Shown in pieces: positions 46,755-59,589 of a DNA stretch of 64,000 bases (positions are counted from its first letter, which is position 1; each line of letters opens with the position of its first letter). Where the stretch lies: NCBI GenBank assembly GCA_964629335.1, contig CAZVRH010000001.1, forward strand, positions 14,788 to 78,787, in the 5' to 3' direction. A program made the translations under genes and the position numbers. The notes under the pieces were generated by a model. That model had not been told where the DNA came from. It did no database searches and was given only the letters and a program-made list of their open reading frames with translations. The stretch comes from an uncultured Woeseia sp. (GTDB lineage Bacteria > Pseudomonadota > Gammaproteobacteria > Steroidobacterales > UBA11654).

Positions 46755-47420
46755 ATGAATGATATAAAAATATACAGTTTCGACAAGTGTCCTTTCGCTC
46801 AAAGAACCAGAATGGTTTTGATTGAGAAGGGTCTTGATTTTGAATTAATTGAAATTGATGTTTATCAAAAGCCTGAATGGTTCCATGAAATTTCACCTTA
46901 TGGAAAAGTCCCGGTGATTGTCCATGAGGGACAGACAATATTTGAATCAGCAATCATTAATGAATATTTAGAGGAAAGGTATCCAGAGGTTGCTCTAATG
47001 CCTTTGGATCATTATCAAAGAGCACGAGCAAGAATCTGGATGGATTACTGTTCAAATTATTATTTACCGGCATGCACGAGGTTGCTCCGTGACCATAAAA
47101 ATGAGGAACTTCAGGAACAAAATCTAAAGAGAATTAGGGACCGATTGCTTTACATTGAAAAGGAATGTTTCGAAAAAAATGAGGACGGTGTTTTCTGGAT
47201 GGGTAATCAAATAACTTTGGTTGACTTACATTACGCACCTTTCTTTGAGCGCTTTAGTGCCTACGAACACTTATTTGATGCTAAGTGGCCTGATGAGTGT
47301 ATAAACATAAGATCTTGGTGGGATGCTATGCAAGAAAGACAAAGTTATTTGGAAACTTTCTTACCGACCGAGTCTCATATAGAAACCTACTCGGAGATGA
47401 TGCAGAGAATAGCTTCCTAA
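46755..47420 (+). CDS. glutathione S-transferase family protein (Cys-type, omega-like CPFA active site)
   Basis: 221 aa. Has a thioredoxin-like N-domain with KCPFAQRTR and GKVPVIVHEG..IFESAIINEYLEE. Confidence 0.8.
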   Translation: MNDIKIYSFDKCPFAQRTRMVLIEKGLDFELIEIDVYQKPEWFHEISPYGKVPVIVHEGQTIFESAIINEYLEERYPEVALMPLDHYQRARARIWMDYCSNYYLPACTRLLRDHKNEELQEQNLKRIRDRLLYIEKECFEKNEDGVFWMGNQITLVDLHYAPFFERFSAYEHLFDAKWPDECINIRSWWDAMQERQSYLETFLPTESHIETYSEMMQRIAS

Positions 47421-48619
47421 TCGGTTCTCAAAGCTTCAATGGGATCAAGTTGGGCTGCCGATCTTGCCGGAAGATAGCCAGCAACCAACCCGATAAATAG
47501 TGAAATCAGAATTGCATAGAGGATATATTCCCAAGCAATTGCAATTGGCATATCTGGATACACGGTAAGGGCTAAATTAACCGCTAGAAATCCTATAGAT
47601 AAACCTAAGATTGCACCTAAGATCGCTAGAAAAATAGATTCCAACAAGAACACATCTTGGATTCTTCTTCTGGATGCTCCGATCGCTCTTAACACCCCTA
47701 TCTCAGACGTTCTCTCATTCACTGCAACCGTCATAATTGTAAAGATGCCTACTCCTCCAACTAAAAGTGAGATGCCCCCAAAAGCAGCAACGGTAAATTT
47801 TAGCCATTTCATAATTTCATCCAAAGACTCTAACATGTCTGCTTGCGTGGTAATGGTTGTGTCGTCACCGCCGTGACGACTAATTAATAATCGTTTTACG
47901 GAAGCCACGGCTTCATCGGCAGTAACGTTATCTTTATGAATCACATCAATTTCTTGAAAGCCATTTCTATTAAACATTGTGTTAAATTTAGCAATCGGAA
48001 TATAAACAGCATCATCAAGATCCATACCTAAAAAATCACCCTTTGAAGGCAGCACGCCTATGACACGGAATCGAGTCGAATTCACGCGAATAGTTAATCC
48101 CAATGGATTTTTTTCACCAAATAATTCTTCTTTCATTTTTGGACCTAAAACTACATACGATCTCGGTGTCTTGGGGTTATCATCAGGAAGATATTCACCA
48201 ACCATTTTGCCTTCTGAGCCAACAATAATATCGTAGTCGGAGCCTGTGCCTACAACCATCGATCGTCGCATCCGAGTGTCGCTTTCAATTTCGCCACTAC
48301 CACCAGACACAGGAACCACGACGTCAATAGTCGAGAGCCTTTCGAGCGCTTCTGCGTCTTCAAACGATAACGGTCTTACCGTTCCAAAGACACCTATCGG
48401 TGCTCCCATTGTTTGTTCTTTTCCAGGTTGAATAGCAATAATGTTGCTACCGAATTGAGTAAATTGTGAGACGATGTAGTCTTGTAAGCCTTGGCCTAAG
48501 CTGGTTAAAAAAATTACACACACAACTCCCACAGCAATCCCAAGAGAAGTGAGAAAACTCCTCATTTTCTGAGAAATCACTGAATAGGATGAGAAAATAA
48601 AAATGTCTTTAATCTTCAT
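47417..48619 (-). CDS. ABC transporter permease, MacB/FtsX type (subunit 2)
   Basis: 400 aa. Has TM1, a large periplasmic domain and 3 C-terminal TM (FtsX) segments. It ends with a LPARSAAQLDPIEALR-like motif. Confidence 0.88.
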   Translation of the reverse strand: MKIKDIFIFSSYSVISQKMRSFLTSLGIAVGVVCVIFLTSLGQGLQDYIVSQFTQFGSNIIAIQPGKEQTMGAPIGVFGTVRPLSFEDAEALERLSTIDVVVPVSGGSGEIESDTRMRRSMVVGTGSDYDIIVGSEGKMVGEYLPDDNPKTPRSYVVLGPKMKEELFGEKNPLGLTIRVNSTRFRVIGVLPSKGDFLGMDLDDAVYIPIAKFNTMFNRNGFQEIDVIHKDNVTADEAVASVKRLLISRHGGDDTTITTQADMLESLDEIMKWLKFTVAAFGGISLLVGGVGIFTIMTVAVNERTSEIGVLRAIGASRRRIQDVFLLESIFLAILGAILGLSIGFLAVNLALTVYPDMPIAIAWEYILYAILISLFIGLVAGYLPARSAAQLDPIEALRTD

Positions 48620-48620
48620 G

Positions 48621-49835
48621 TCATTTGTTCCCAGACAACGCTATCACCGGATCAAGCTTAGCGGCCCTTCTCGCGGGCAGTAAGCCAAAAACAACGCCTG
48701 AAACTAAAGCCACAAAAAGAGAAACAAACGATGCCCACAGTGGAGGCAGAAAATTAAAAGTAGGAAAAGCTACTTTTAGAATCTGAGTAACAGTGTGCCC
48801 CAAAACTAATCCCAATATTGCTCCTGATCCAGATAAAATAATTGCCTCGGTAATAAATAAGTGGTTTATCTGGTTATTTTTAGCCCCGATGGCTTTCAGT
48901 AAACCAATTTCTGCTTGTCGTTGTGATACAGCAACCAACATCACATTCATAATAAGAATACCAGCTACAAATAAGCTGATGGAAGCAATAGAACCCAAAG
49001 CCATGGTTAAAACATTAAAGATGTTATCAAAAGACTTCATGACTGCATCTTGTCTGATTACAGTAATATCCTCCTTGCCCTGATGCCGTTTTTTGATAAT
49101 TCTTATGATGTCTTTTTTAATCTGCTCCATCTCCCAAGTGCTTCTGGCTTCAATCCCAATTCTAAATAATGAAGGCCGGTTAAATAAGGCAGTGGCTAGA
49201 CTAACTGGCATTACAACTACCTTTTGAGCATCAATGCCTACAGCTCTTCCTTCTGTGCCAATAATACCGGTAACACGACATCGTCTATCCCCGACTCTCA
49301 GCCATTGACCAATAGCTTTGTTTTTACCAAACAGCTCAGACTCTACTTCCTTGCCAATTACACAAACTGGGGGTGAACGATCCAATGTGACTCCTGGCAG
49401 AAAATTACCAGATGCCATTTCCCATTTTCTAACTGCTAAAAAAGAAGGGGTCGAACCGATTATCGGTACCGTTCGTTCTAAACCATTGAATTGAGCAGGG
49501 GTTTCACCAATGACAATGGGTGCGATATTTTTGATTGCCTCAATTTGTCTTAAACTAATAGCGTCTTCAATCGTCAGGTCTCTTGGTGCAACACCGGCTA
49601 AATCCACGGGTGAAGATCCTCCTGAAGTTTCATTTTTGCCGGGCATAACAATCAGTAGATTGGTGCCCATATCTCTAAATTCACCCGTGATATAATCCCG
49701 AGCACCTTCGCCTACTGCGGTTAATAGAATGACAGCCATCACTCCGATGGAAGTTGCAATAAGTAACATGAGCGTCCTCAATGGATATCGAACCAGGGTG
49801 CTAAAGGCTAAAAATATAAGATCATAAAAACGCAT
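48621..49835 (-). CDS. ABC transporter permease, MacB/FtsX type (subunit 1)
   Basis: 404 aa, a paralogue of the downstream permease. Ends with LPARRAAKLDPVIALS. Confidence 0.88.
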   Translation of the reverse strand: MRFYDLIFLAFSTLVRYPLRTLMLLIATSIGVMAVILLTAVGEGARDYITGEFRDMGTNLLIVMPGKNETSGGSSPVDLAGVAPRDLTIEDAISLRQIEAIKNIAPIVIGETPAQFNGLERTVPIIGSTPSFLAVRKWEMASGNFLPGVTLDRSPPVCVIGKEVESELFGKNKAIGQWLRVGDRRCRVTGIIGTEGRAVGIDAQKVVVMPVSLATALFNRPSLFRIGIEARSTWEMEQIKKDIIRIIKKRHQGKEDITVIRQDAVMKSFDNIFNVLTMALGSIASISLFVAGILIMNVMLVAVSQRQAEIGLLKAIGAKNNQINHLFITEAIILSGSGAILGLVLGHTVTQILKVAFPTFNFLPPLWASFVSLFVALVSGVVFGLLPARRAAKLDPVIALSGNK

Positions 49836-49837
49836 AG

Positions 49838-50512
49838 TTAGTTCTTTTTATCGTTAATAATTTTACCGTCTAGGAGCTCAATTAATCGATCTGAACGTGC
49901 TCCCATCTCTGCATCATGAGTAACCACCACAAGAGTTAACCCACCTTGATTGAGTTCTTCTATTAATCTGATAATTTCTTTACTCGAGGCTGAATCTAGA
50001 TTTCCAGTGGGTTCATCCGCCAATAATACATCGGGCTCCATAACAATGGATCTGGCTATAGCAACACGCTGCCTTTGACCTCCAGAAAGCTGTTCTGGTC
50101 GATGATCTGATCTATCGGTTAAACTCACTCTAGCCAATGCATTGTCCACCTTTTCCTGTCTTTCTTTAGGGCTTAATCCTGACAAAACCATTGGCATTTC
50201 AACATTTTCTGCAGCGGTTAATCTGGGAATTAAATGAAACGATTGAAAAACAAACCCTATTTTTGTAGATCGAATATGAGCCATTTCATCATCATTCATC
50301 TTCGATGTATTAATTCCGGATAAAATATAATCCCCAGAGGTTGGGGTATCTAACAACCCCAGGATGTTCAATAGTGTCGATTTCCCAGAGCCAGACACAC
50401 CCATGATTGACACATATTCTTTTTGATTGATGACTAAGTCAACTTCGTCTAAGGCACGAACTATCTGGTTGCCCACTTCAAAATGTCGGCATAAATTATC
50501 TAGGCTAATCAT
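49838..50512 (-). CDS. ABC transporter ATP-binding protein (MacB/LolD-like)
   Basis: 224 aa. Has Walker A GVSGSGKST, the signature LSGGQRQR and Walker B LLADEPT. Confidence 0.93.
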   Translation of the reverse strand: MISLDNLCRHFEVGNQIVRALDEVDLVINQKEYVSIMGVSGSGKSTLLNILGLLDTPTSGDYILSGINTSKMNDDEMAHIRSTKIGFVFQSFHLIPRLTAAENVEMPMVLSGLSPKERQEKVDNALARVSLTDRSDHRPEQLSGGQRQRVAIARSIVMEPDVLLADEPTGNLDSASSKEIIRLIEELNQGGLTLVVVTHDAEMGARSDRLIELLDGKIINDKKN

Positions 50513-50526
50513 TGATCAATGATATC

Positions 50527-51684
50527 TTATCCGATTTCTATCTCGACAGAGTTAGTCTCACTGACATCGTCCTGGTCTTGGTCTTTTTTTGTTTCTTCAA
50601 TATTGACTTTAACGCCGTCTTCAAGTCCTTTCCTGTCAATGGATAGAACAATTTGATCATCAATGCTAAGACCGCTTAATACTTCGGTAAGCTGCCAATT
50701 CGAAAGACCAACTTCAATTTCTTTTGCAGAGATAGTTCCATCTGAATTAATAAGATAAACAGAGTTACCGCTCATTACTGCCTGAGAGGGAATACTCAAG
50801 GTTTCTTCAGATGTATCAATGACAATTGTAATATCAGCACTATAACCAGGAAGGAGAAATTCTTGAGGATTATCAAAAACAGCTTCAATTTCAACCGTTC
50901 TTGCCTGTTTTTCCAAATCAAGAACATAGGGAGCAACTCGTCTTACTGTTGATGGAAATTCTTTTTGTCCAAAAGCATCCATAGTAATTCTTGATTTCAA
51001 ACCAGCAACCACTTCGGGGGCGTCGATTTCATCAATCGGAGCTTTGATATAAATACAGGTGTTATCTATGAGGTCTAGAGTTGGTTTGGTGGCAACACCC
51101 ACGGGTGAGGGTGTAACGTATTCGCCCAATTCACCTTCAATTTCAGCCACAATCCCACCGAATGGTGCAATCAGTTGGGTCCTCTCTAGTGAAGCCTTAG
51201 AAACCTCCACTTGTGCTTTTGCAGCATTGCATGCAGCGAGCCCAGACTCAGCATTGGTCACTGCTGCTTCTTTGGCTTCCTCTGAAGCAAGCCCTTTAGC
51301 AAACAGTTCATTGGTTCTATCGGCATCTCGTTGGGCTTTAGCAGAAATGATACAGGTCTGCTCAGCGCTTCTCTCAGCAGCTTTGACTCTCGCCTTGGTT
51401 TCTTTATTCCAGAGTTCTAAGAGTATCTGATCTTTTTCAACCATATCCCCTTCTTCCACTGCCAGTGTTGCAATCTGCCCTCCCATGGCAGGTGACATTT
51501 TTGATCGTCTACAGGCATCAATCGTCCCAGCTCTAGTGTTGGAGACTGTTTGTTCTACGGTTTTAATTTCTGGTTTAACAGCAAGCACTTTGATTGCCTC
51601 TTCAGCTCCGTCGTAAAAGAAGCTTGAAACAACCAAGAGCAGAATAACAACTGCTATAATTTTTTTGTTTCTGTCGATCTTCAT
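50527..51684 (-). CDS. efflux periplasmic adaptor (membrane fusion protein, HlyD/MacA family)
   Basis: 385 aa. Has an N-terminal anchor, a lipoyl-like half, a coiled-coil hairpin and a beta-barrel pattern (APFGGIVAEI...). Confidence 0.85.
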   Translation of the reverse strand: MKIDRNKKIIAVVILLLVVSSFFYDGAEEAIKVLAVKPEIKTVEQTVSNTRAGTIDACRRSKMSPAMGGQIATLAVEEGDMVEKDQILLELWNKETKARVKAAERSAEQTCIISAKAQRDADRTNELFAKGLASEEAKEAAVTNAESGLAACNAAKAQVEVSKASLERTQLIAPFGGIVAEIEGELGEYVTPSPVGVATKPTLDLIDNTCIYIKAPIDEIDAPEVVAGLKSRITMDAFGQKEFPSTVRRVAPYVLDLEKQARTVEIEAVFDNPQEFLLPGYSADITIVIDTSEETLSIPSQAVMSGNSVYLINSDGTISAKEIEVGLSNWQLTEVLSGLSIDDQIVLSIDRKGLEDGVKVNIEETKKDQDQDDVSETNSVEIEIG

Positions 51685-51831
51685 AAATAATTTCGAACAA
51701 TTGTATACACTTCAGGAAAGAAAGCCATTCTAAGATACAATTAGTTACACCAAAAGAGCATAAAGCTAAACCTCATTGTTTCTTCATAATCTAGTGATAT
51801 ATTCTCCTTATACCCTTAAAAGGATTTGTTT

Positions 51832-52278
51832 ATGAAATATTTATCTATAATCTCGAAAAATATTTTTACTGCTTGGTTCTCCTTCTATATTGGTATTAGA
51901 GTCTATATAGTTTTCTCTCTTTTCATTATTTCTATTTCTGGCTGTGTCGTTAATAGTTCTAGCTCAATACTTGAAGGCTCAAAACCTATTATCGATACCA
52001 AAGGTGTAAATATGTCGCAGTATGAAATTGATCTTGAAGAATGCTCAAGCTTTTCTGAAGATATATCAACGGGAAAAAGTATTGCTAAAGGGGCTGCAAC
52101 GGGTGCAGCTGTTGGTGCAGTCATAGAAGCCATCACTGAGGATGCAAGGTCAAGGCGAGATGCCATAGAAGTCGGTGCTGTAACCGGCGGAGCAAAATCA
52201 GGCATCAGAGCGGTTAGAGAAAAAGAACAAATTCTAAAACGTTGTTTAAGAGGACGCGGATATAAAGTTCTAAACTAA
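51832..52278 (+). CDS. lipoprotein with glycine-zipper motif
   Basis: AAAGGA SD before the ATG at 51832 (track start is TTG 51826). Lipobox ISISGC and glycine zipper GAATGAAVGAVIEA...GAVTGGA. Confidence 0.65.
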   Translation: MKYLSIISKNIFTAWFSFYIGIRVYIVFSLFIISISGCVVNSSSSILEGSKPIIDTKGVNMSQYEIDLEECSSFSEDISTGKSIAKGAATGAAVGAVIEAITEDARSRRDAIEVGAVTGGAKSGIRAVREKEQILKRCLRGRGYKVLN

Positions 52279-52887
52279 TTACGTGGATGGATTAAAAGCA
52301 ACACCGCAACCGCCGTGTCCACAATACCCGTCGGGGTTTTTTGCTAAATACTGCTGGTGATAATCTTCTGCATAATAAAAGGTTTGAGTCTGCAGAACTT
52401 CTGTGACAATCCTGCCATAACCAGCATCCGTTAAACTGGATTGATATTGTTCTTTTGATGTTTCAATCAATTCAAGCGTTCTTTGGTCAGGGTAAAAAAC
52501 TGCTGAGCGATATTGGCTTCCAACATCACTACCCTGCCTCATATACTGTGTTGGATCGTGCCCTTCCCAAAACACTTTTAGTAATTTCTCTGTAGAAATC
52601 TGCTCAGGTTGATAAACAACTGAAACAACCTCTGCATGACCTGTGGTACCAGAGCATACCTCGCGATAAGTTGGCTTATCCTTGGTTCCACCACTGTAGC
52701 CAACGCTGGTGATATGCACACCTTCCAATTGCCAGAATACTTTTTCAGGTCCCCAAAAACATCCCATGCCCACTATTAATTCTAAACAGCCATCGGGAAA
52801 GGGAGCGTGCATATTATTCCCGTTTACAAAATGTGTTTTTGAGATTTCCATCTTTGAATTTTTATTATCACTTTGTCGTAAAAACAA
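52279..52887 (-). CDS. msrA: peptide-methionine (S)-S-oxide reductase MsrA (TTG 52887 or ATG 52851 start)
   Basis: Has the GMGCFWG active site, GYSGG, HAEVV, and C-terminal YHQQYLAKNPDGYCG. Confidence 0.93.
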   Translation of the reverse strand: MFLRQSDNKNSKMEISKTHFVNGNNMHAPFPDGCLELIVGMGCFWGPEKVFWQLEGVHITSVGYSGGTKDKPTYREVCSGTTGHAEVVSVVYQPEQISTEKLLKVFWEGHDPTQYMRQGSDVGSQYRSAVFYPDQRTLELIETSKEQYQSSLTDAGYGRIVTEVLQTQTFYYAEDYHQQYLAKNPDGYCGHGGCGVAFNPST

Positions 52888-52950
52888 ACAAATATGATAA
52901 ATTAATAATTAACTAACTTAAAGCTAATCAAGGAATGAGAAGAAAATACA

Positions 52951-54312
52951 ATGCATAGAACTGCGGTTTATTTGACAGGACTCATAATTGTTGTCTCATT
53001 CTTGATTCCGGTTGGATCAAACGATATAGATTCAACTGAGAAACTGAAAGAAAGAAAAAATTTCCAGCAGGATTTCCTAGAGCTGTATGATGCTGAGCGA
53101 TTTCAGCAAAGTATCCTACCAGCCAAACAAGTTGTTTCTCTCACTGAAGAAATCTATGGTGAGAAAAGCTTTAAACTGATAACGCCTCTTAATAATCTTG
53201 CAAGTGCCTACTTCATGATTGAGGATTTTGAAAATGCCCAATCTTTATTCCTCAAATGTATTGACTTAATTGAAGTCAATCAAAATATTATTTCCCCAGA
53301 ATTAATAGAACCCCTGTATGGTTTCGGTTTAACCCTGAATCGATTTGGACAATACGAGGAAGCCATTGATATTCTGGAACGAGCTCTCAGAATTAATCAT
53401 GTCAATCAAGGGTTCCACAATCTCGCTCAACTCAAAATTCATGACACATTGACTGAAAGCTTCATTGGTACTAAGGATTTTAAACAAGCCAATCACCACC
53501 AAACGTTTCAAGTTTATGTGCACAAACAACACCACGGAGTAAACAATTCAAATGTGGATGAGTCCCTTATAAAATTGGCTAATTGGTATAAACGAACTGG
53601 CCAAGTTTTTCTGGAAAGAGAAATTCATAATGAACTCTTGAAGAGGCGTGAACTTCAAGATTCTGCAGACATCAAAGCCCTTATTGAAACATATAAAAAT
53701 ATTTCTTTTTCTCATCGTAGAGAAGCCATTGATCTATATAAAAGTTTAAACCCACTCAAAAAAGCTTTGGAAGTTATCGAATCAACAGAGAATCCAGATT
53801 TAAGAATGAAGTTCGAGGTGTTGTTAGATTTGGGAGATACTTACACCAGTTTTGGAAGAGTTCAATCCGGTGTAAAAGCTTACAAAGACTGTTGGGCCAT
53901 TATTGAAGAAGATGAAAACATGAAGGATCTTATTACAGAACGCTTCTCACAACCTGTGAAGGTTCGTAACATTTTAATTCCTAACACCTATCCAGTCCCA
54001 GAAAATATAGATGAAAACAATTCTTATCAAAAAGGCTATATTTCTCTGCGTTATGACATTGGAATTGATGGCAAGACAGAGAATATTAATATTATAGAAG
54101 CGGACCCAAAAGATTTGATTGATCGAGTTGCCGTATCAGTCATCAAAAACACAATTTATAGGCCTGTATATATTGATGCTGAAGCTCAAGAATCAACAGG
54201 GATTAACTTTAGACATGAATACAACTACCCCGCTCAAGATGAGTCAGAGAAGAAACCTCAAAACACACCTGAAAATATAGAAGACAAACCCTTAGAAAAT
54301 CCGATTGCTTAA
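52951..54312 (+). CDS. membrane-anchored TPR-repeat protein with TonB C-terminal-like domain
   Basis: 453 aa. Has an N-terminal TM and TPR-like helical repeats (LNNLASAYFMIEDFENAQSLF..., YGFGLTLNRFGQYEEAIDILERAL). The C-terminal segment YISLRYDIGIDGKTENINIIEA...AVSVIKNTIYRP resembles TonB_C. Confidence 0.6.
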   Translation: MHRTAVYLTGLIIVVSFLIPVGSNDIDSTEKLKERKNFQQDFLELYDAERFQQSILPAKQVVSLTEEIYGEKSFKLITPLNNLASAYFMIEDFENAQSLFLKCIDLIEVNQNIISPELIEPLYGFGLTLNRFGQYEEAIDILERALRINHVNQGFHNLAQLKIHDTLTESFIGTKDFKQANHHQTFQVYVHKQHHGVNNSNVDESLIKLANWYKRTGQVFLEREIHNELLKRRELQDSADIKALIETYKNISFSHRREAIDLYKSLNPLKKALEVIESTENPDLRMKFEVLLDLGDTYTSFGRVQSGVKAYKDCWAIIEEDENMKDLITERFSQPVKVRNILIPNTYPVPENIDENNSYQKGYISLRYDIGIDGKTENINIIEADPKDLIDRVAVSVIKNTIYRPVYIDAEAQESTGINFRHEYNYPAQDESEKKPQNTPENIEDKPLENPIA

Positions 54313-54316
54313 ATTT

Positions 54317-55477
54317 TTAACCGTCTCTTAACTTGCCAGAAGCGCTGGATCCGATGAAGATTATGAGGTAAATCAATCCCACCACGGCCATAAACCAACC
54401 AAACGCATTGTGGCCAAACAAATCCATTGCAGCACCTACAACCGGAGGCCCTAATATCTCCCCTAAAGATAGAAAAAAGATAAAACTAGCATTAGCAGAA
54501 GCTAAAACCTTTCCTTTAAATTGCTGTCCAAGCAAGGTGAGGCCTAGTGAGTAGAAACTCATGATTGACCCACCGATAATGAAGAGAAATAAAAATCGCA
54601 TAACAGGAACTTCAAAAATGACTGGCAAAATAGCCAAAGTAATAACACTTACGCTTGAAATATAAATCATTAGTCTAGTTTTATCGTATCGATCAGCCAT
54701 CCAGCCTACAACAAGTGGCAATGTTAATTCTCCACTTGCTAACCAAGCAACTGTCCTTGATGATTGGGCATAATCTTCTTGCACGTAAGGAAGAGCAAAA
54801 ATAGGCAATAAAGCTGCGGTTGCTGCATACAAAAAACCCATAACCCAACTAGATCCCATCAGACCTGGTGCTGTGACCAAGTATCTATAAAAGGAAATAT
54901 CTTCCACTACATCAAAATCTGGCAAATCCTCCATATTCCATAGTGGCACTGCGGCGATGAGAGCAATACCAGCAGACACAAAAAACCCAGCACCGCTTTC
55001 AACCGGAAGCAATGAGGAGACCAAAACCCCCACGATAAGGCCCAAAGAAATCAATGAAGAATAAACGGCAATGATCTTGCCTCGATGCTGATCCTCGGCA
55101 AAGGCATTAATCCACACTTCACTTAATAACCAAATTCCTGTGGCTGCAACACCAATGATAAATCTGAGAACAAACCAGAGATAAATGTTTTGAAAAATAG
55201 GCAAGAACACAATAGTTATGGGTAAAACCATTAAACAAAACCTCATGATTTGCATTTGCCCAAAGCGGTTGATCAGTTTGGAAAAGAAAGGAGTAATAAT
55301 CACGGTTGCCAGACCGGTCATAGATGCTGCAAAACCAATCACCGAAGTTGACGTGCCCCAGGTTTTAAGGGTCAATGAACTTAAAGGAAGATTGATACCG
55401 ATCATCACACCCACCAGCGTGATAGCTAGCATTACTTTTGCAAGGTTCTTTAATCTGTTCGGATTACTCATATTCAT
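54317..55477 (-). CDS. MFS transporter (YcaD-like, 12 TM)
   Basis: 386 aa. Has MFS loop motifs SKLINRFGQMQIM and GWMADRYDKTRLM, plus WFVLRFIIGVAATGIW..SE as in YcaD-type permeases. Confidence 0.85.
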   Translation of the reverse strand: MNMSNPNRLKNLAKVMLAITLVGVMIGINLPLSSLTLKTWGTSTSVIGFAASMTGLATVIITPFFSKLINRFGQMQIMRFCLMVLPITIVFLPIFQNIYLWFVLRFIIGVAATGIWLLSEVWINAFAEDQHRGKIIAVYSSLISLGLIVGVLVSSLLPVESGAGFFVSAGIALIAAVPLWNMEDLPDFDVVEDISFYRYLVTAPGLMGSSWVMGFLYAATAALLPIFALPYVQEDYAQSSRTVAWLASGELTLPLVVGWMADRYDKTRLMIYISSVSVITLAILPVIFEVPVMRFLFLFIIGGSIMSFYSLGLTLLGQQFKGKVLASANASFIFFLSLGEILGPPVVGAAMDLFGHNAFGWFMAVVGLIYLIIFIGSSASGKLRDG

Positions 55478-55481
55478 GAGC

Positions 55482-56483
55482 TCATTGAGCTTGAAATTCT
55501 TGTTTTCCTGCGTTAATTAAATCAACCAATTCATTTGACCGTCCCCCGATCTGGTTAGCCAATCGTTGCACTTGACCTTGGGTTGCGTCTTTCCATAATT
55601 TCCGTTGATCTTTGCTTAACTCATAAACTGTAATGCCCATTTTTTCTGCATTAGATAAATCTGATTCAGCTTCAGCTCTTAATGAACGCCTGGATTCTTT
55701 TGCTTCTGGCCAAGCTTGTTTTATTATCTTTTGTTGCTCAGAACTTAGCTCATCCCACCAAGCTTTTCTTGCCACCATAATGGACATTCCAAGAGAATGC
55801 TGGGTTAACGTGTAATGAGGGGCTTCTTGTTCTTTTCCACTTTTAACGTAAAGAGCGACTGAATTATCACCTGCTTCAATTAAACCGGTTTGCAATGATT
55901 GAACTATTTCACCGTAACCCATTGGAAACAGATCAGCACCAATGGCTTCTGCAAAATAGCGAGAACTTAAGCTTGCAGACACTCTATAACGCGTTCCCTT
56001 TGCATCTGCAGGTGTCAGGATGGGTTCTTTTGCATAAACATTGTGGAATCCTATCTCACTCCAGGCAACAAATTGCAATCCCTTCTCTGCCAATAATTCT
56101 GTAAAAATAGAGGTTAAATAATTATCGTATATAAAATCAGCCTCTGCAGCAGAATCAAACAGATAAGGTGCGTACAATAATGCAGCTTCGGGAACTAGTG
56201 TGGACACAATAATTGCTGACAGATTAGCAAATTGAACTCTATTTCTTCTCAAACCAGAAACCAAATTCTCCTCAGAGCCCAACTGTCCATAGACCAGCAG
56301 CTTGGTTTCCATTTCTGGTATGCCTAGATTAACGCCCTGCTCAAAGTCTAGGAAATGCTGCTCGCCAACGGTGTTGGGTATGCCCGTTCCTCCGACTGTC
56401 ATGGATAAAGAATTCTTTTCACGGTTAGCATCGCATCCGGTGATAACAATGATTAAAGCAAGTAAAAGAGATTTGTAATTCAT
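55482..56483 (-). CDS. DctP-family (TRAP-type) solute-binding protein, lipoprotein
   Basis: 333 aa. Lipobox VITG|C with Asp at +2. DctP-like core: LVYGQLGSEENLVSGLRRNRVQFANLS..., GFHNVYAKEPILTPADAKGTRYRV, and EIVQSLQTGLIEAGDNS. Confidence 0.8.
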   Translation of the reverse strand: MNYKSLLLALIIVITGCDANREKNSLSMTVGGTGIPNTVGEQHFLDFEQGVNLGIPEMETKLLVYGQLGSEENLVSGLRRNRVQFANLSAIIVSTLVPEAALLYAPYLFDSAAEADFIYDNYLTSIFTELLAEKGLQFVAWSEIGFHNVYAKEPILTPADAKGTRYRVSASLSSRYFAEAIGADLFPMGYGEIVQSLQTGLIEAGDNSVALYVKSGKEQEAPHYTLTQHSLGMSIMVARKAWWDELSSEQQKIIKQAWPEAKESRRSLRAEAESDLSNAEKMGITVYELSKDQRKLWKDATQGQVQRLANQIGGRSNELVDLINAGKQEFQAQ

Positions 56484-56578
56484 AGTTAGCCTCAGTAGGA
56501 ATCCAACATTGTCTCATTTGACTAGGTTGGCGTCCATCCACGAATCCGTTAAGATACGCATATATTTATTAAGGTTTT

Positions 56579-57544
56579 GTGATGCGATTAAAAAGAAACT
56601 CAAAAGATAGAATCAAGACATCAGAGATTACACCAGAATCTATTTATCTTAATCGTCGCTCAATTCTTCAAGCATTTGGAACATTAACAACTGGATTAGC
56701 AACCAATCTTGTTTCAATGAGCTCCGTGAGTGCCAATGAAAGGACGTTGCAATTTATTAATAACGCAAAATACTCAACCGATGAAACTATCAATAGTTTT
56801 GAAGATATAACGACTTACAATAATTTCTATGAGTTTGGTATGCAAAAAAGTGACCCCTTCAACAACAGCAGTGCATTTGAACCTAAACCCTGGACAGTAA
56901 AAGTTAGTGGCAAAGCAACAAAAACAGGAATTTTCGATCTGGATGATCTTATTGACTTCAATGCTCTAGAAGAAAGGATCTATAGATTAAGGTGTGTGGA
57001 AGCTTGGTCGATGGTGATTCCCTGGATTGGAATCCCACTTGCTTCGATCATAAAAAAATTAGAACCCACATTGGATGCAAAATATGTTGCATTTGAGACC
57101 GTTTATAGGCCTGAACAAATGCCAGGACAAAGGCGCCGTATTCTAGACTGGCCTTATATTGAAGGACTGACGATGCCAGAAGCAATGCACCCTCTAACAA
57201 TTATTGCTGTTGGTTTATATGGCAAAGAATTATTAAATCAAAACGGTGCCCCTATGCGATTGGTGGTTCCTTGGAAGTACGGCTTCAAAAGCATTAAATC
57301 AATAAATAAAATTCATTTTTCATCAAATCAACCTCGAACCAGTTGGAATATATCAGCACCCAATGAATACGGCTTTCTTGCTAACGTTAATCCAAATGTG
57401 GATCATCCTCGATGGAGTCAAGCACAGGAACGAAGAATAGGCTCAGGGTTCTTTGGAGCAAAACAACCCACACTTATGTTCAATGGTTATACAGAGGAAG
57501 TTGCAAACCTGTATACAGGGATTAATCTTCAACGCAATTTTTAA
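56579..57544 (+). CDS. msrP: protein-methionine-sulfoxide reductase catalytic subunit MsrP (YedY), molybdoenzyme
   Basis: Tat-like [10 protein letters not shown]. Has [24 protein letters not shown] and [18 protein letters not shown] 56579 or ATG 56582 start. Confidence 0.92.
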
Positions 57545-57562
57545 GTTAACAAGACACACAGA

Positions 57563-58147
57563 ATGAAAATTTTAGTTCAACTCGTTCTGGCGGCCAGTTT
57601 GTTACCTTATCTTTTGCTTAATTTTAGAGCCTTTGGATTTTTTGGTGGGCTGGGTGCTAACCCAATTGAGGCCATTATTCATGACACCGGTCTATGGGGT
57701 ATAAGGTTGCTGATTATCACCTTATTGTTGACGCCTATATATCACTATTCAAATCAAGAAATCTTTAGACGATTACCCAAACCGATTGGTTTGATTGCCT
57801 TTTTTTATGTCTTAAATCATTTTCTCTGTTATGCAATCATAGATCAGTCGGCTAACCTTGGCGTTATTGTTGTCGATATAATAGAAACTCCCTACTTAAT
57901 TGTTGGATGGGGAGGCTTTCTATGTTTGCTGGCTGTTGGTTTAGCGTCCTTTAATTCATTTGAAGATTGGTTTAATAAAAACAGATCTTCGATGAGCGGT
58001 TTAGTCTACACTGCAGCAATTCTTGGTGTCTGGCACTATTTCTGGCAAGAAAAAGTTATTGGTTACGAAGCTTTGATTGACACTGTTTTAATATCATTGC
58101 TTATCCTATGGCGTCTGCGGATTAGTGTCGATAAAGCCAAGAGTTAG
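57563..58147 (+). CDS. msrQ: protein-methionine-sulfoxide reductase heme-binding subunit MsrQ (YedZ)
   Basis: 194 aa with 5-6 TM segments and conserved His residues (IHDTG, LNHF, WHYFW). Follows msrP. Confidence 0.88.
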   Translation: MKILVQLVLAASLLPYLLLNFRAFGFFGGLGANPIEAIIHDTGLWGIRLLIITLLLTPIYHYSNQEIFRRLPKPIGLIAFFYVLNHFLCYAIIDQSANLGVIVVDIIETPYLIVGWGGFLCLLAVGLASFNSFEDWFNKNRSSMSGLVYTAAILGVWHYFWQEKVIGYEALIDTVLISLLILWRLRISVDKAKS

Positions 58148-59589
58148 TTATTGCTAACCGCCCAGTTGAGAAGGTCTGTTGTAAAGGTCGCAGTTTCAGA
58201 AGAATGATCAGAAATACTGTTGTGAAGAAAAACAAATGCGTATTCTTTCCCAGAAAGCCCCGTAATAAAACCAGCTAAACCTCTAACTCCGTCCAATGTG
58301 CCTGTTTTAAGCTTGAGTCGGTTTGTGAGCAAATCTGATTTATATTTATTCTCTAACGTTCCATCCACACCAGAGATTGGAAGTGACTTTAAAATTATTT
58401 CTGAAGATGGATGTCGCTTGATTGCTTTAAGTAAACTTAAAACAGCCTCAGGACTGATTGTTGACTTTCTGGAAAGTCCCGATCCATTCTCAAAAAAAGT
58501 ATCGGAATTAATTACCACACCATGATCTATCAGCACATTATTCATAATTCTTCGAGACGTCTTGTAGTTTTTCTGCCCTAAAGATTGGTTGAGGCTGAGA
58601 AATAAATTACGGGCAATCAAATTATCGCTCTCCTTGACAGCTTCGATAATAATTTCCTCAAGACGTGGCGAATCAAACGCTATGATTGGTCTTTTGAGAA
58701 ATCCTGCTTTTCCTTCTCTAATGTATCCGTTGAACAGCCCCCCCGATTCTAACCAGATTTTTTTAAAAGAACCCAAGAAGTAATGATTCGCATCAGTCAG
58801 AGAAATATCGTGCTCAAACTGATTACAATTTCTTGGATATTGACCGTTGACTAGAATAACAAAATTAAACGGTTTTTTTTCTCTGTTCATCTGCGAAAAA
58901 TTCACATGCTCTCTAAAATCACTACATGAACCAGACCCTAGTTCTAACTCGTTAGTAACCGATACATTGTCAGGTAAAAATTCTGGGTTGATCTGGATTG
59001 TGTTATTTGAATTTTTTGTGATTTTAAAATCAATCCTATTGGAATTAATTAGAAATGAACTGTGGGATATATTGTATGGACGAAGTGGATCATCATCGAA
59101 ATCAGCTGTGGAAATTTGGGGTTGCTGAAAAAAATTCTGGTCCACAATTAAACCGTCATTAATGGTCTTAATTCCTAGATTTCTCAATTGTAAAACCATC
59201 TTTTCCAGGCGCTCTATGGTTATATAAGGATCACCACCGCCTTTAAAAATTAGTGAGTCTACTGCTCCATCGTTCACACTGTCTGTACTATAAACTTCTG
59301 TGGTCCAATGAAAATCAGGCTCTAGATGTTCGATTGCTACAAAGGCAGTAAATAGCTTCAGAACGGACGCCGGTGTTCGATTCATCTCTGGATTGAGATT
59401 AATTAACCTGGTGTCGGCATCTACTGGTTGCATGATAATACTGAGGCTTTCTATGGGAATCCCATATTTGTTTGCCAATACTTCAATCTCTTTGGGTAGA
59501 ATCTTTTCTCCATAAGCTGGAGAACTGATGAAAGAAATAACAAGAAGGACGAACAGCAGAGGTTGTTTATTAACGCAACTACTGAACAT
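58144..59589 (-). CDS. dacB: D-alanyl-D-alanine carboxypeptidase/endopeptidase PBP4
   Basis: 481 aa with a signal peptide. Has SxxK (ASVLKLFT), SGLS and KTGTL motifs. Confidence 0.9.
   Translation of the reverse strand: MFSSCVNKQPLLFVLLVISFISSPAYGEKILPKEIEVLANKYGIPIESLSIIMQPVDADTRLINLNPEMNRTPASVLKLFTAFVAIEHLEPDFHWTTEVYSTDSVNDGAVDSLIFKGGGDPYITIERLEKMVLQLRNLGIKTINDGLIVDQNFFQQPQISTADFDDDPLRPYNISHSSFLINSNRIDFKITKNSNNTIQINPEFLPDNVSVTNELELGSGSCSDFREHVNFSQMNREKKPFNFVILVNGQYPRNCNQFEHDISLTDANHYFLGSFKKIWLESGGLFNGYIREGKAGFLKRPIIAFDSPRLEEIIIEAVKESDNLIARNLFLSLNQSLGQKNYKTSRRIMNNVLIDHGVVINSDTFFENGSGLSRKSTISPEAVLSLLKAIKRHPSSEIILKSLPISGVDGTLENKYKSDLLTNRLKLKTGTLDGVRGLAGFITGLSGKEYAFVFLHNSISDHSSETATFTTDLLNWAVSNN

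Follow-up and report, generated by a model that had tools for sequence, protein, structure and literature searches.

Two adjoining genes on the minus strand of a 64 kb stretch of DNA from an uncultured Woeseia sp. (the window; GC content 38 %) encode a solute-binding lipoprotein (SBP) of 333 aa (55482–56483) and a permease of the major facilitator superfamily (MFS) of 386 aa (54317–55477), here called MFS-A. The SBP is of the DctP family, the type found in tripartite ATP-independent periplasmic (TRAP) transport systems. The pair is a genuine, conserved two-gene operon that is selectively maintained in a clade of pelagic, low-GC, Woeseia-like gammaproteobacteria, genes for the TRAP membrane components DctQ and DctM are absent from its surroundings, and the SBP family has come to share an operon with an MFS gene twice. 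The reading that we tentatively prefer is a lineage-specific recruitment of a DctP lipoprotein by a self-sufficient MFS carrier, both acting on the same carboxylate, with co-transcription of two proteins that are not coupled mechanistically being nearly as likely.

The SBP stop codon (TGA, 55482–55484) is followed by 4 nt (GCTC, 55478–55481) and then by the MFS-A start codon (ATG at 55477), with a further ATG 6 nt inside the MFS open reading frame (ORF). An SBP gene that is operonic with the gene for a carrier is what would be expected of an SBP-dependent secondary transporter, and the 4 nt gap gives the pair this arrangement. The MFS-A gene is separated by 4 nt from the end, at 54312, of a convergent gene, and 95 bp of intergenic sequence lie between the SBP gene and the start of the divergent msrP at 56579. 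The original prediction, made from the sequence of the window, had described two co-directional genes with this junction and these boundaries, and was accurate in each of these respects. A scan for consensus promoters and terminators around the pair gave counts no higher than expected from shuffled sequence, and no terminator was found between the two genes. As the GC and GC3 (third codon position) content of the MFS gene is like that of the neighbouring genes, it is a resident gene, and acquisition by horizontal transfer was rejected. The closest genome matches to the window are pelagic 'Woeseia sp.' and gammaproteobacterial metagenome-assembled genomes (MAGs) or single-cell genomes, with the nearest SBP, in locus L001, sharing 86 % identity. 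A survey of all polytopic membrane ORFs in the window found MreD, RodA, Lgt, two MacB/FtsX permeases and MsrQ besides the MFS, and no DctQ or DctM, as had been claimed.

Profile matches, the fold and a conserved arginine all place the SBP securely in the DctP family, which upholds the earlier assignment. It matches Pfam DctP (PF03480; E value 7e-42, 144 bits with a cut-off of 23.4) and NCBIfam TRAP_S1 (NF037995; 179 bits, cut-off 50), and scores 106 bits against TIGR00787, which is under the cut-off of 175. The AlphaFold2 (AF2) model (pLDDT 76.8, low over residues 197–227) has the two-lobe alpha/beta fold of TRAP SBPs, and its top Foldseek matches in the PDB are all TRAP SBPs (TM-scores 0.70–0.78, 18–23 % identity), for example 4p47 (0.77). 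A profile built from 16 members of the SBP family matches 80 solved TRAP SBPs, the best again being 4p47 (E 1e-37). In the alignment of this profile, the motif G-x-R-Y-R167-V-S-A-S lies on the arginine strand of the PDB TRAP SBPs (YRVSAS versus kiRtlqs and klRvmqn), making Arg167 (codon 55983–55985, minus strand) the equivalent of their carboxylate-binding arginine (R147 in SiaP), and Asn207 (codon 55863–55865, minus strand), in A-G-D-N207, aligns with their GQEN motif. Both residues are invariant among the 16 family members and, with these and the TRAP SBP fold retained, the protein is predicted to be a working binding protein of the TRAP type. The arginine is known as the carboxylate selectivity filter in TRAP SBPs (PMC4646407). 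An organic acid is thus the probable ligand, and the characterised SBPs are all too distant to say which.

A signal peptide with the lipobox VITG-C17 is encoded at 56433–56483 (minus strand), the protein starting MNYKSLLLALIIVITG-C17-D18 with the codon for Asp18, the residue at position +2, at 56430–56432. The lipobox cysteine is found in most members of the SBP family; the SBP of locus L019 and several in the group described below as clade IIb have ordinary signal peptides. The original prediction was right about the lipobox and the Asp at +2, but its argument from the Asp to retention on the inner membrane, next to a permease, is weakened. Avoidance of the Lol system by lipoproteins with Asp at +2 is a rule established for enterobacteria and not for this lineage, and the residue is not conserved: of the 17 SBP-MFS loci related to the window, the lipobox pattern calls Asp at this position in 10 and Gly in 6, and it does not match the remaining one, L006, which reads ...MACDTS (also Asp).

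MFS-A combines the features that define its superfamily, a match to the Pfam MFS_1 profile (PF07690; E 2e-32, 112.9 bits with a cut-off of 33.4) and 12 transmembrane helices in two six-helix halves. In the AF2 model (pLDDT 89.3) the helices are long and are connected by loops of a few residues. Hence, the description of this protein as an MFS permease with 12 transmembrane helices stands, but the further label 'YcaD-like' is weak, and identity with the YcaD equivalog (NF002962) was rejected on a score of 64.6 bits against a cut-off of 361. Foldseek matches include NorA, MdfA and DgoT (TM-scores 0.77–0.83), and the nearest solved folds are those of NorA, MdfA and VMAT, at 16–18 % identity.

To place the pair among its relatives, one genome per species was scanned, which yielded 80 loci with orthologues of the SBP (44–86 % identity), with 13 kb covered in each genome. 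The neighbours found in the window were mapped in these loci, the hydrophobic ORFs in the flanks were clustered and the clusters identified with Pfam, and a tree of the SBPs was built. No gene for DctQ or DctM was found within 6 kb of the SBP gene in any of the 80 loci, which extends the earlier claim of their absence beyond the window; the membrane proteins encoded in the flanks are Amt, EamA, MFS, MacB/FtsX, MBOAT, TauE, MarC and similar proteins. A tripartite TRAP system has DctQ and DctM in the operon or neighbourhood of the SBP, and because these defining components are missing locally, the locus is not a TRAP transporter. Their absence near all 80 SBPs is unusual, since all but a small minority of TRAP SBP genes share an operon with those for the membrane components (PMC12344293).

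The SBPs fall into three clades that differ in context. Clade I, made up of the window, L001–L016 and L062, has the order msrQ< msrP< >SBP >MFS-A <TPR/TonB_C >msrA. About 47 loci form clade III, with the same frame of msrQP, TPR-TonB_C and msrA but no MFS gene, so that the SBP is a lone gene, sometimes with DUF547 or ADH genes inserted beside it. In clade IIa (L019, L030, L042 and L068) a different MFS gene, encoding MFS-B (411–418 aa), is directly upstream of the SBP gene, and the members of clade IIb, which are Steroidobacteraceae-like, have a lone SBP in other contexts. The lone SBPs are mostly within the conserved msrQ-msrP / SBP / TPR-TonB_C / msrA block. The SBP subfamily is an ancestrally lone gene, without DctQM nearby in 80 species.

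An MFS gene directly after the SBP gene is seen in clade I only, where MFS-A takes this place in 17 of 17 pelagic Woeseia-like genomes. Sixteen of these keep the two genes −4 to +18 nt apart, with four ATGA or GTGA overlaps of stop and start codons, and the spacing holds while identity drops as low as 68 % (SBP) and 52 % (MFS). Conservation of the adjacency in relatives, which had been set beforehand as a check on the original prediction, was therefore seen throughout clade I but not in the wider set, in which about 59 of the 80 orthologues lack an adjoining MFS.

The operons of clade I also share an element upstream of the SBP gene. Its copy in the window, at 56508–56546 (minus strand) between msrP and the SBP gene, reads GATTC-N3-GATgGACG-N17-TGAGACAAT. 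The related loci give the consensus GATTC-N3-GAT(A/G)GAC(G/T/A)-N17-TGAGACAAT, which is almost invariant in 17 of 17 SBP-MFS loci within an upstream region of 79–142 nt that is otherwise divergent. It consists of a −35-box-like part (TAGACG in most loci) and an extended −10-like part, and was not found upstream of the orphan SBP orthologues. A search of Rfam with the element returned no match, and on this ground it was read as a promoter and the alternative, a riboswitch, was rejected. From its layout, it may be a −35 and extended −10 promoter, possibly together with an operator.

A second SBP-MFS operon is found in clade IIa, where the MFS-B gene and the SBP gene overlap by 4 nt in L019. The MFS-B/SBP operon is present in four genomes and in one metagenome locus, L112. 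MFS-B has no BLASTP similarity to MFS-A (E >1), and since the two operons contain unrelated MFS proteins, on opposite sides of the SBP gene (MFS-A downstream in clade I, MFS-B upstream in clade IIa) and in separate clades, the SBP family has joined an MFS in an operon twice independently. No other kind of transporter has been acquired in an operon by this SBP family in the 80 loci. In one of the clade IIa loci, L068, a TonB_C protein is encoded directly after the SBP (L068:7033–8076), and an MFS-A orthologue, with 39 % identity along its entire length, is also present, 1.7 kb downstream of the SBP. A protein of about 190 aa that matches no Pfam family is encoded divergently to the MFS-A homologue in L068 (8093–8680, minus strand) and again in L081 (5303–5869, minus strand), both of which are Woeseiaceae-like.

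The tight junction kept while the MFS diverges to 52 % identity, the clade-specific upstream element and the two origins of an SBP-MFS operon are what chiefly suggest a functional link, and make the operon a reasonable candidate for recruitment of an SBP by an MFS, judged from genomic context. The MFS-A orthologue near the SBP in L068, the native composition of the MFS gene, the lack of DctQM in all the neighbourhoods, the retained ligand-binding residues and fold of the SBP and the precedent of TAXI-GltS, discussed below, also speak for it. Such a recruitment would be lineage-specific, rather than an ancient obligate system. Under this reading, a lone DctP lipoprotein and a self-sufficient MFS would have been joined in one translationally coupled operon and would share a carboxylate. 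The membrane-tethered SBP would bind the organic acid on the periplasmic side of the inner membrane and either raise the local supply of substrate to the outward-open MFS or dock on it, and the MFS would then move the substrate inward using the proton-motive force.

Several observations weigh against recruitment. We know of no MFS that uses an SBP, and MFS-A has no periplasmic domain, its loops being of 3–6 residues in the AF2 model. The Asp at +2 of the SBP varies even within the clade that includes the window. About 59 of the 80 orthologous genomes have the SBP gene without an MFS gene beside it, hence the SBP can function without one. A mirror-tree comparison of SBP and MFS in 16 genomes left a residual correlation of r = 0.17 after removal of the background from neighbouring genes, which is not above that for unrelated neighbours, and we consider this covariation test uninformative.

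The MFS families themselves are also found mostly without an SBP. No DctP gene is present around the MFS-A relatives in six loci, which come from a Woeseiaceae-like contig and from Alphaproteobacteria, and a hidden Markov model of the SBP family found no match in these loci. In the Woeseiaceae-like locus L081, an MFS-A homologue that is 77 % identical to the copy in L068 lies beside genes for a phosphatase, a protease and two TPR-TonB_C proteins, with no SBP gene. The alphaproteobacterial homologues (L083–L086, L167 and L169; 34–43 % identity to the L068 copy) are in a conserved topA-rnr-DUF983-NUDIX-MFS-rpmG block, and one more distant homologue lies outside such a block; this conserved housekeeping setting hints at a conserved role for that MFS family. 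For MFS-B, 80 metagenomic relatives (38–55 % identity) were collected. In 63 of them the sequence continues for 1 kb or more downstream, and a DctP gene is present there in just one of these, L112, which is essentially from the same organism as L019. The SBP and carrier families therefore do not co-occur consistently across their range, and both MFS families appear normally to stand alone, with no general dependence on an SBP. Hence the partnership proposed originally is backed by a conserved operon, a second operon and the local absence of DctQM, but relatives of the SBP and of both MFS families are mostly unpaired.

No DctP-MFS (Rosetta-stone) fusion was found among the 150 best representatives that an exhaustive search through 1.84 billion proteins returned. 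The search did reveal a further point against recruitment. One relative, P0388 (536 aa; 38 % identity to the window SBP), joins DctP to DctQ in a single protein. Near relatives outside the SBP family are thus ordinary TRAP components, and it is plausible that the SBP has a TRAP partner encoded at a distance. In another relative, P0419 (678 aa), two DctP units are arranged in tandem; neither architecture is a usual one.

These findings bear on the explanation that we rate nearly as likely as recruitment, namely that the two genes are co-transcribed but their products act independently, the SBP serving a DctQM encoded elsewhere or another distant partner and the MFS working alone, its gene having landed and stayed in the SBP transcription unit. 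That most orthologues of the SBP are orphans, that both MFS families normally occur without an SBP, that no specific SBP-MFS covariation was detected and that a DctP-DctQ fusion is among the nearest relatives outside the SBP family are all in keeping with independence, and orphan TRAP SBPs have been reported in reviews. However, two separate operon fusions with an MFS, and with no other type of transporter, across about three clades are improbable by chance, and start/stop overlaps and gaps of 4–10 nt are kept across deep divergence. A distant DctQM also has to be reconciled with 80 neighbourhoods devoid of these genes, when the vast majority of TRAP SBP genes have them alongside (PMC12344293).

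Whether MFS-A would be an importer, as recruitment supposes, may also be questioned, as the proteins that it weakly matches in family and fold tend to be of efflux or antiport (drug/H+) types, such as NorA, MdfA, MdtG and YdeE, and this too counts against recruitment. It would fit with an export or hand-off pair, in which the MFS would export a compound bearing a carboxylate and the lipoprotein would receive or chaperone it in the periplasm. This possibility, which we consider unlikely, draws on the same matches, with FslB in addition, on the recurrence of TonB_C/TPR genes nearby and on the existence of a lipoprotein-MFS operon, LprG-Rv1410c (PMC4709180). However, matches at 13–18 % identity say little about the direction of transport, and the modelled fold also matches the importers DgoT and G6PT. 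No role of DctP-family proteins is known beyond that of receptors in uptake or sensing, and no biosynthetic genes for an exported product are next to the pair.

The divergent neighbours of the SBP gene are msrP (56579–57544, plus strand; Pfam Oxidored_molyb) and msrQ (57563–58147, plus strand; Pfam Ferric_reduct). Both are conserved neighbours and not part of the transporter. The convergent gene, at 52951–54312 on the plus strand, encodes a 453 aa protein with TPR and TonB_C domains (Pfam TPR_12 and TonB_C), and a gene of this type is beside the SBP gene in 43 of the 80 loci. A variant form of the TPR/TonB_C protein is encoded beside the SBP in L068, and two copies are near the MFS-A homologue of L081 that lacks an SBP (L081:9531–12304).

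The synteny PBP4 / msrQ-msrP / SBP / TPR-TonB_C / msrA / 150 aa lipoprotein, at 52279–59589 in the window, is kept in most of the 80 genomes (loci L001–L078). The 150 aa predicted lipoprotein (51826–52278, plus strand) has a Gly/Ala-rich C-terminal half and no Pfam match, and its gene follows msrA in 33 of the 80 loci. Beyond it, a MacAB-like efflux operon (47417–51684, minus strand) encodes an HlyD-type adaptor, an ABC ATPase and two MacB/FtsX permeases, and an operon of the same type is near the SBP in L025.

The msr block may reflect function, such as an oxidised-methionine ligand, or inheritance. If it reflects function, the SBP might be mainly a sensor or be tied to the repair of oxidative damage, binding for example methionine sulfoxide or a related oxidised carboxylate, with the MFS an accessory importer in one clade. 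The SBP gene is divergent to msrP in 64 of the 80 loci and msrA is nearby in 55, and SBPs are known to feed signalling receptors (PMC8050422; PMC8461474). However, the block also holds functionally unrelated genes (those for PBP4 and the 150 aa lipoprotein), such that shared ancestry explains the synteny. For this reason the functional interpretation of the msrPQ/msrA synteny was down-weighted. Moreover, in some genomes insertions of genes such as those for DUF547 and ADH separate the SBP gene from its neighbours, and no gene for a sensor kinase or chemoreceptor adjoins it. We regard a role in sensing or repair as improbable, to about the same degree as export.

The most far-reaching version of the preferred reading is that the operon encodes the first binding-protein-dependent MFS transporter, in which a DctP SBP acting outside TRAP delivers a carboxylate to a rocker-switch MFS, and that this evolved twice with unrelated partners. 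It is a proposition that we consider rather doubtful. A full-text search of the literature found no report of a DctP or any other TRAP SBP working with an MFS, in keeping with the original prediction, which knew of no description of such an architecture, and a paper on SBP repertoires makes no mention of the MFS. To our knowledge, the accepted SBP-dependent secondary transporters (TRAP, the TctABC transporters of the TTT family and the recently proposed TAXI-GltS) all have elevator-type membrane components. Carriers of the MFS, a family larger than any other among secondary carriers, are taken to be self-sufficient. If true, the proposition would extend SBP dependence beyond ABC and elevator-type (TRAP, TTT and GltS) carriers, would mean that SBPs are exchangeable between transporters of unrelated fold and would provide abundant marine oligotrophic bacteria with an uptake route that is cheap, of high affinity and independent of ATP. 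A functional pair would add a further form to SBP-dependent secondary transport, the first in which the carrier is of the rocker-switch type. If the pair is not functional, it would be an ordinary orphan SBP sharing a transcript with an ordinary MFS, and the finding would then be a DctP subfamily that is systematically orphan across a broad group of related gammaproteobacterial MAGs.

Compared with known systems, the window SBP resembles that of the TRAP transporters (DctPQM and SiaPQM; TCDB 2.A.56) in being DctP by profile, fold and carboxylate-binding arginine. The locus differs from them in that the window and the 6 kb around the 80 orthologues contain no DctQ or DctM genes, and in that the adjoining membrane protein is an MFS with the rocker-switch fold and not an elevator-type DctM. 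The TTT systems (TctABC) and the orphan 'Bug' SBPs likewise offer SBP-dependent secondary transport and many SBPs without an adjoining membrane partner (PMC5812351), but the TctC family of SBPs and the TctAB membrane proteins are unrelated to the pair in the window. Orphan signalling SBPs have no cognate transporter nearby, as is the case for about 59 of the 80 members of the window SBP family (PMC8050422; PMC8461474), though no receptor, kinase or chemoreceptor gene adjoins the SBP gene in the window. The LprG-Rv1410c (P55) system of Mycobacterium tuberculosis is also a two-gene operon for a ligand-binding lipoprotein and an MFS, and LprG and Rv1410c act together (PMC4709180). However, LprG does not have the SBP fold, the system exports lipid and the host is an actinobacterium.

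The nearest precedent for an SBP recruited by a non-TRAP secondary carrier would, by analogy, be TAXI-GltS of Bordetella pertussis (BP0403-GltS, 2025), in which a TRAP-type SBP has been proposed to serve such a carrier (PMC12344293). Here too, the gene for a TRAP-type SBP lies beside that for a carrier from outside TRAP, and both cases were found via gene context. The SBP of TAXI-GltS is of the TAXI type, elongated and dimeric, bears an additional domain and is paired with GltS, whereas the putative pair in the window consists of a DctP-type lipoprotein of ordinary length and an MFS carrier.

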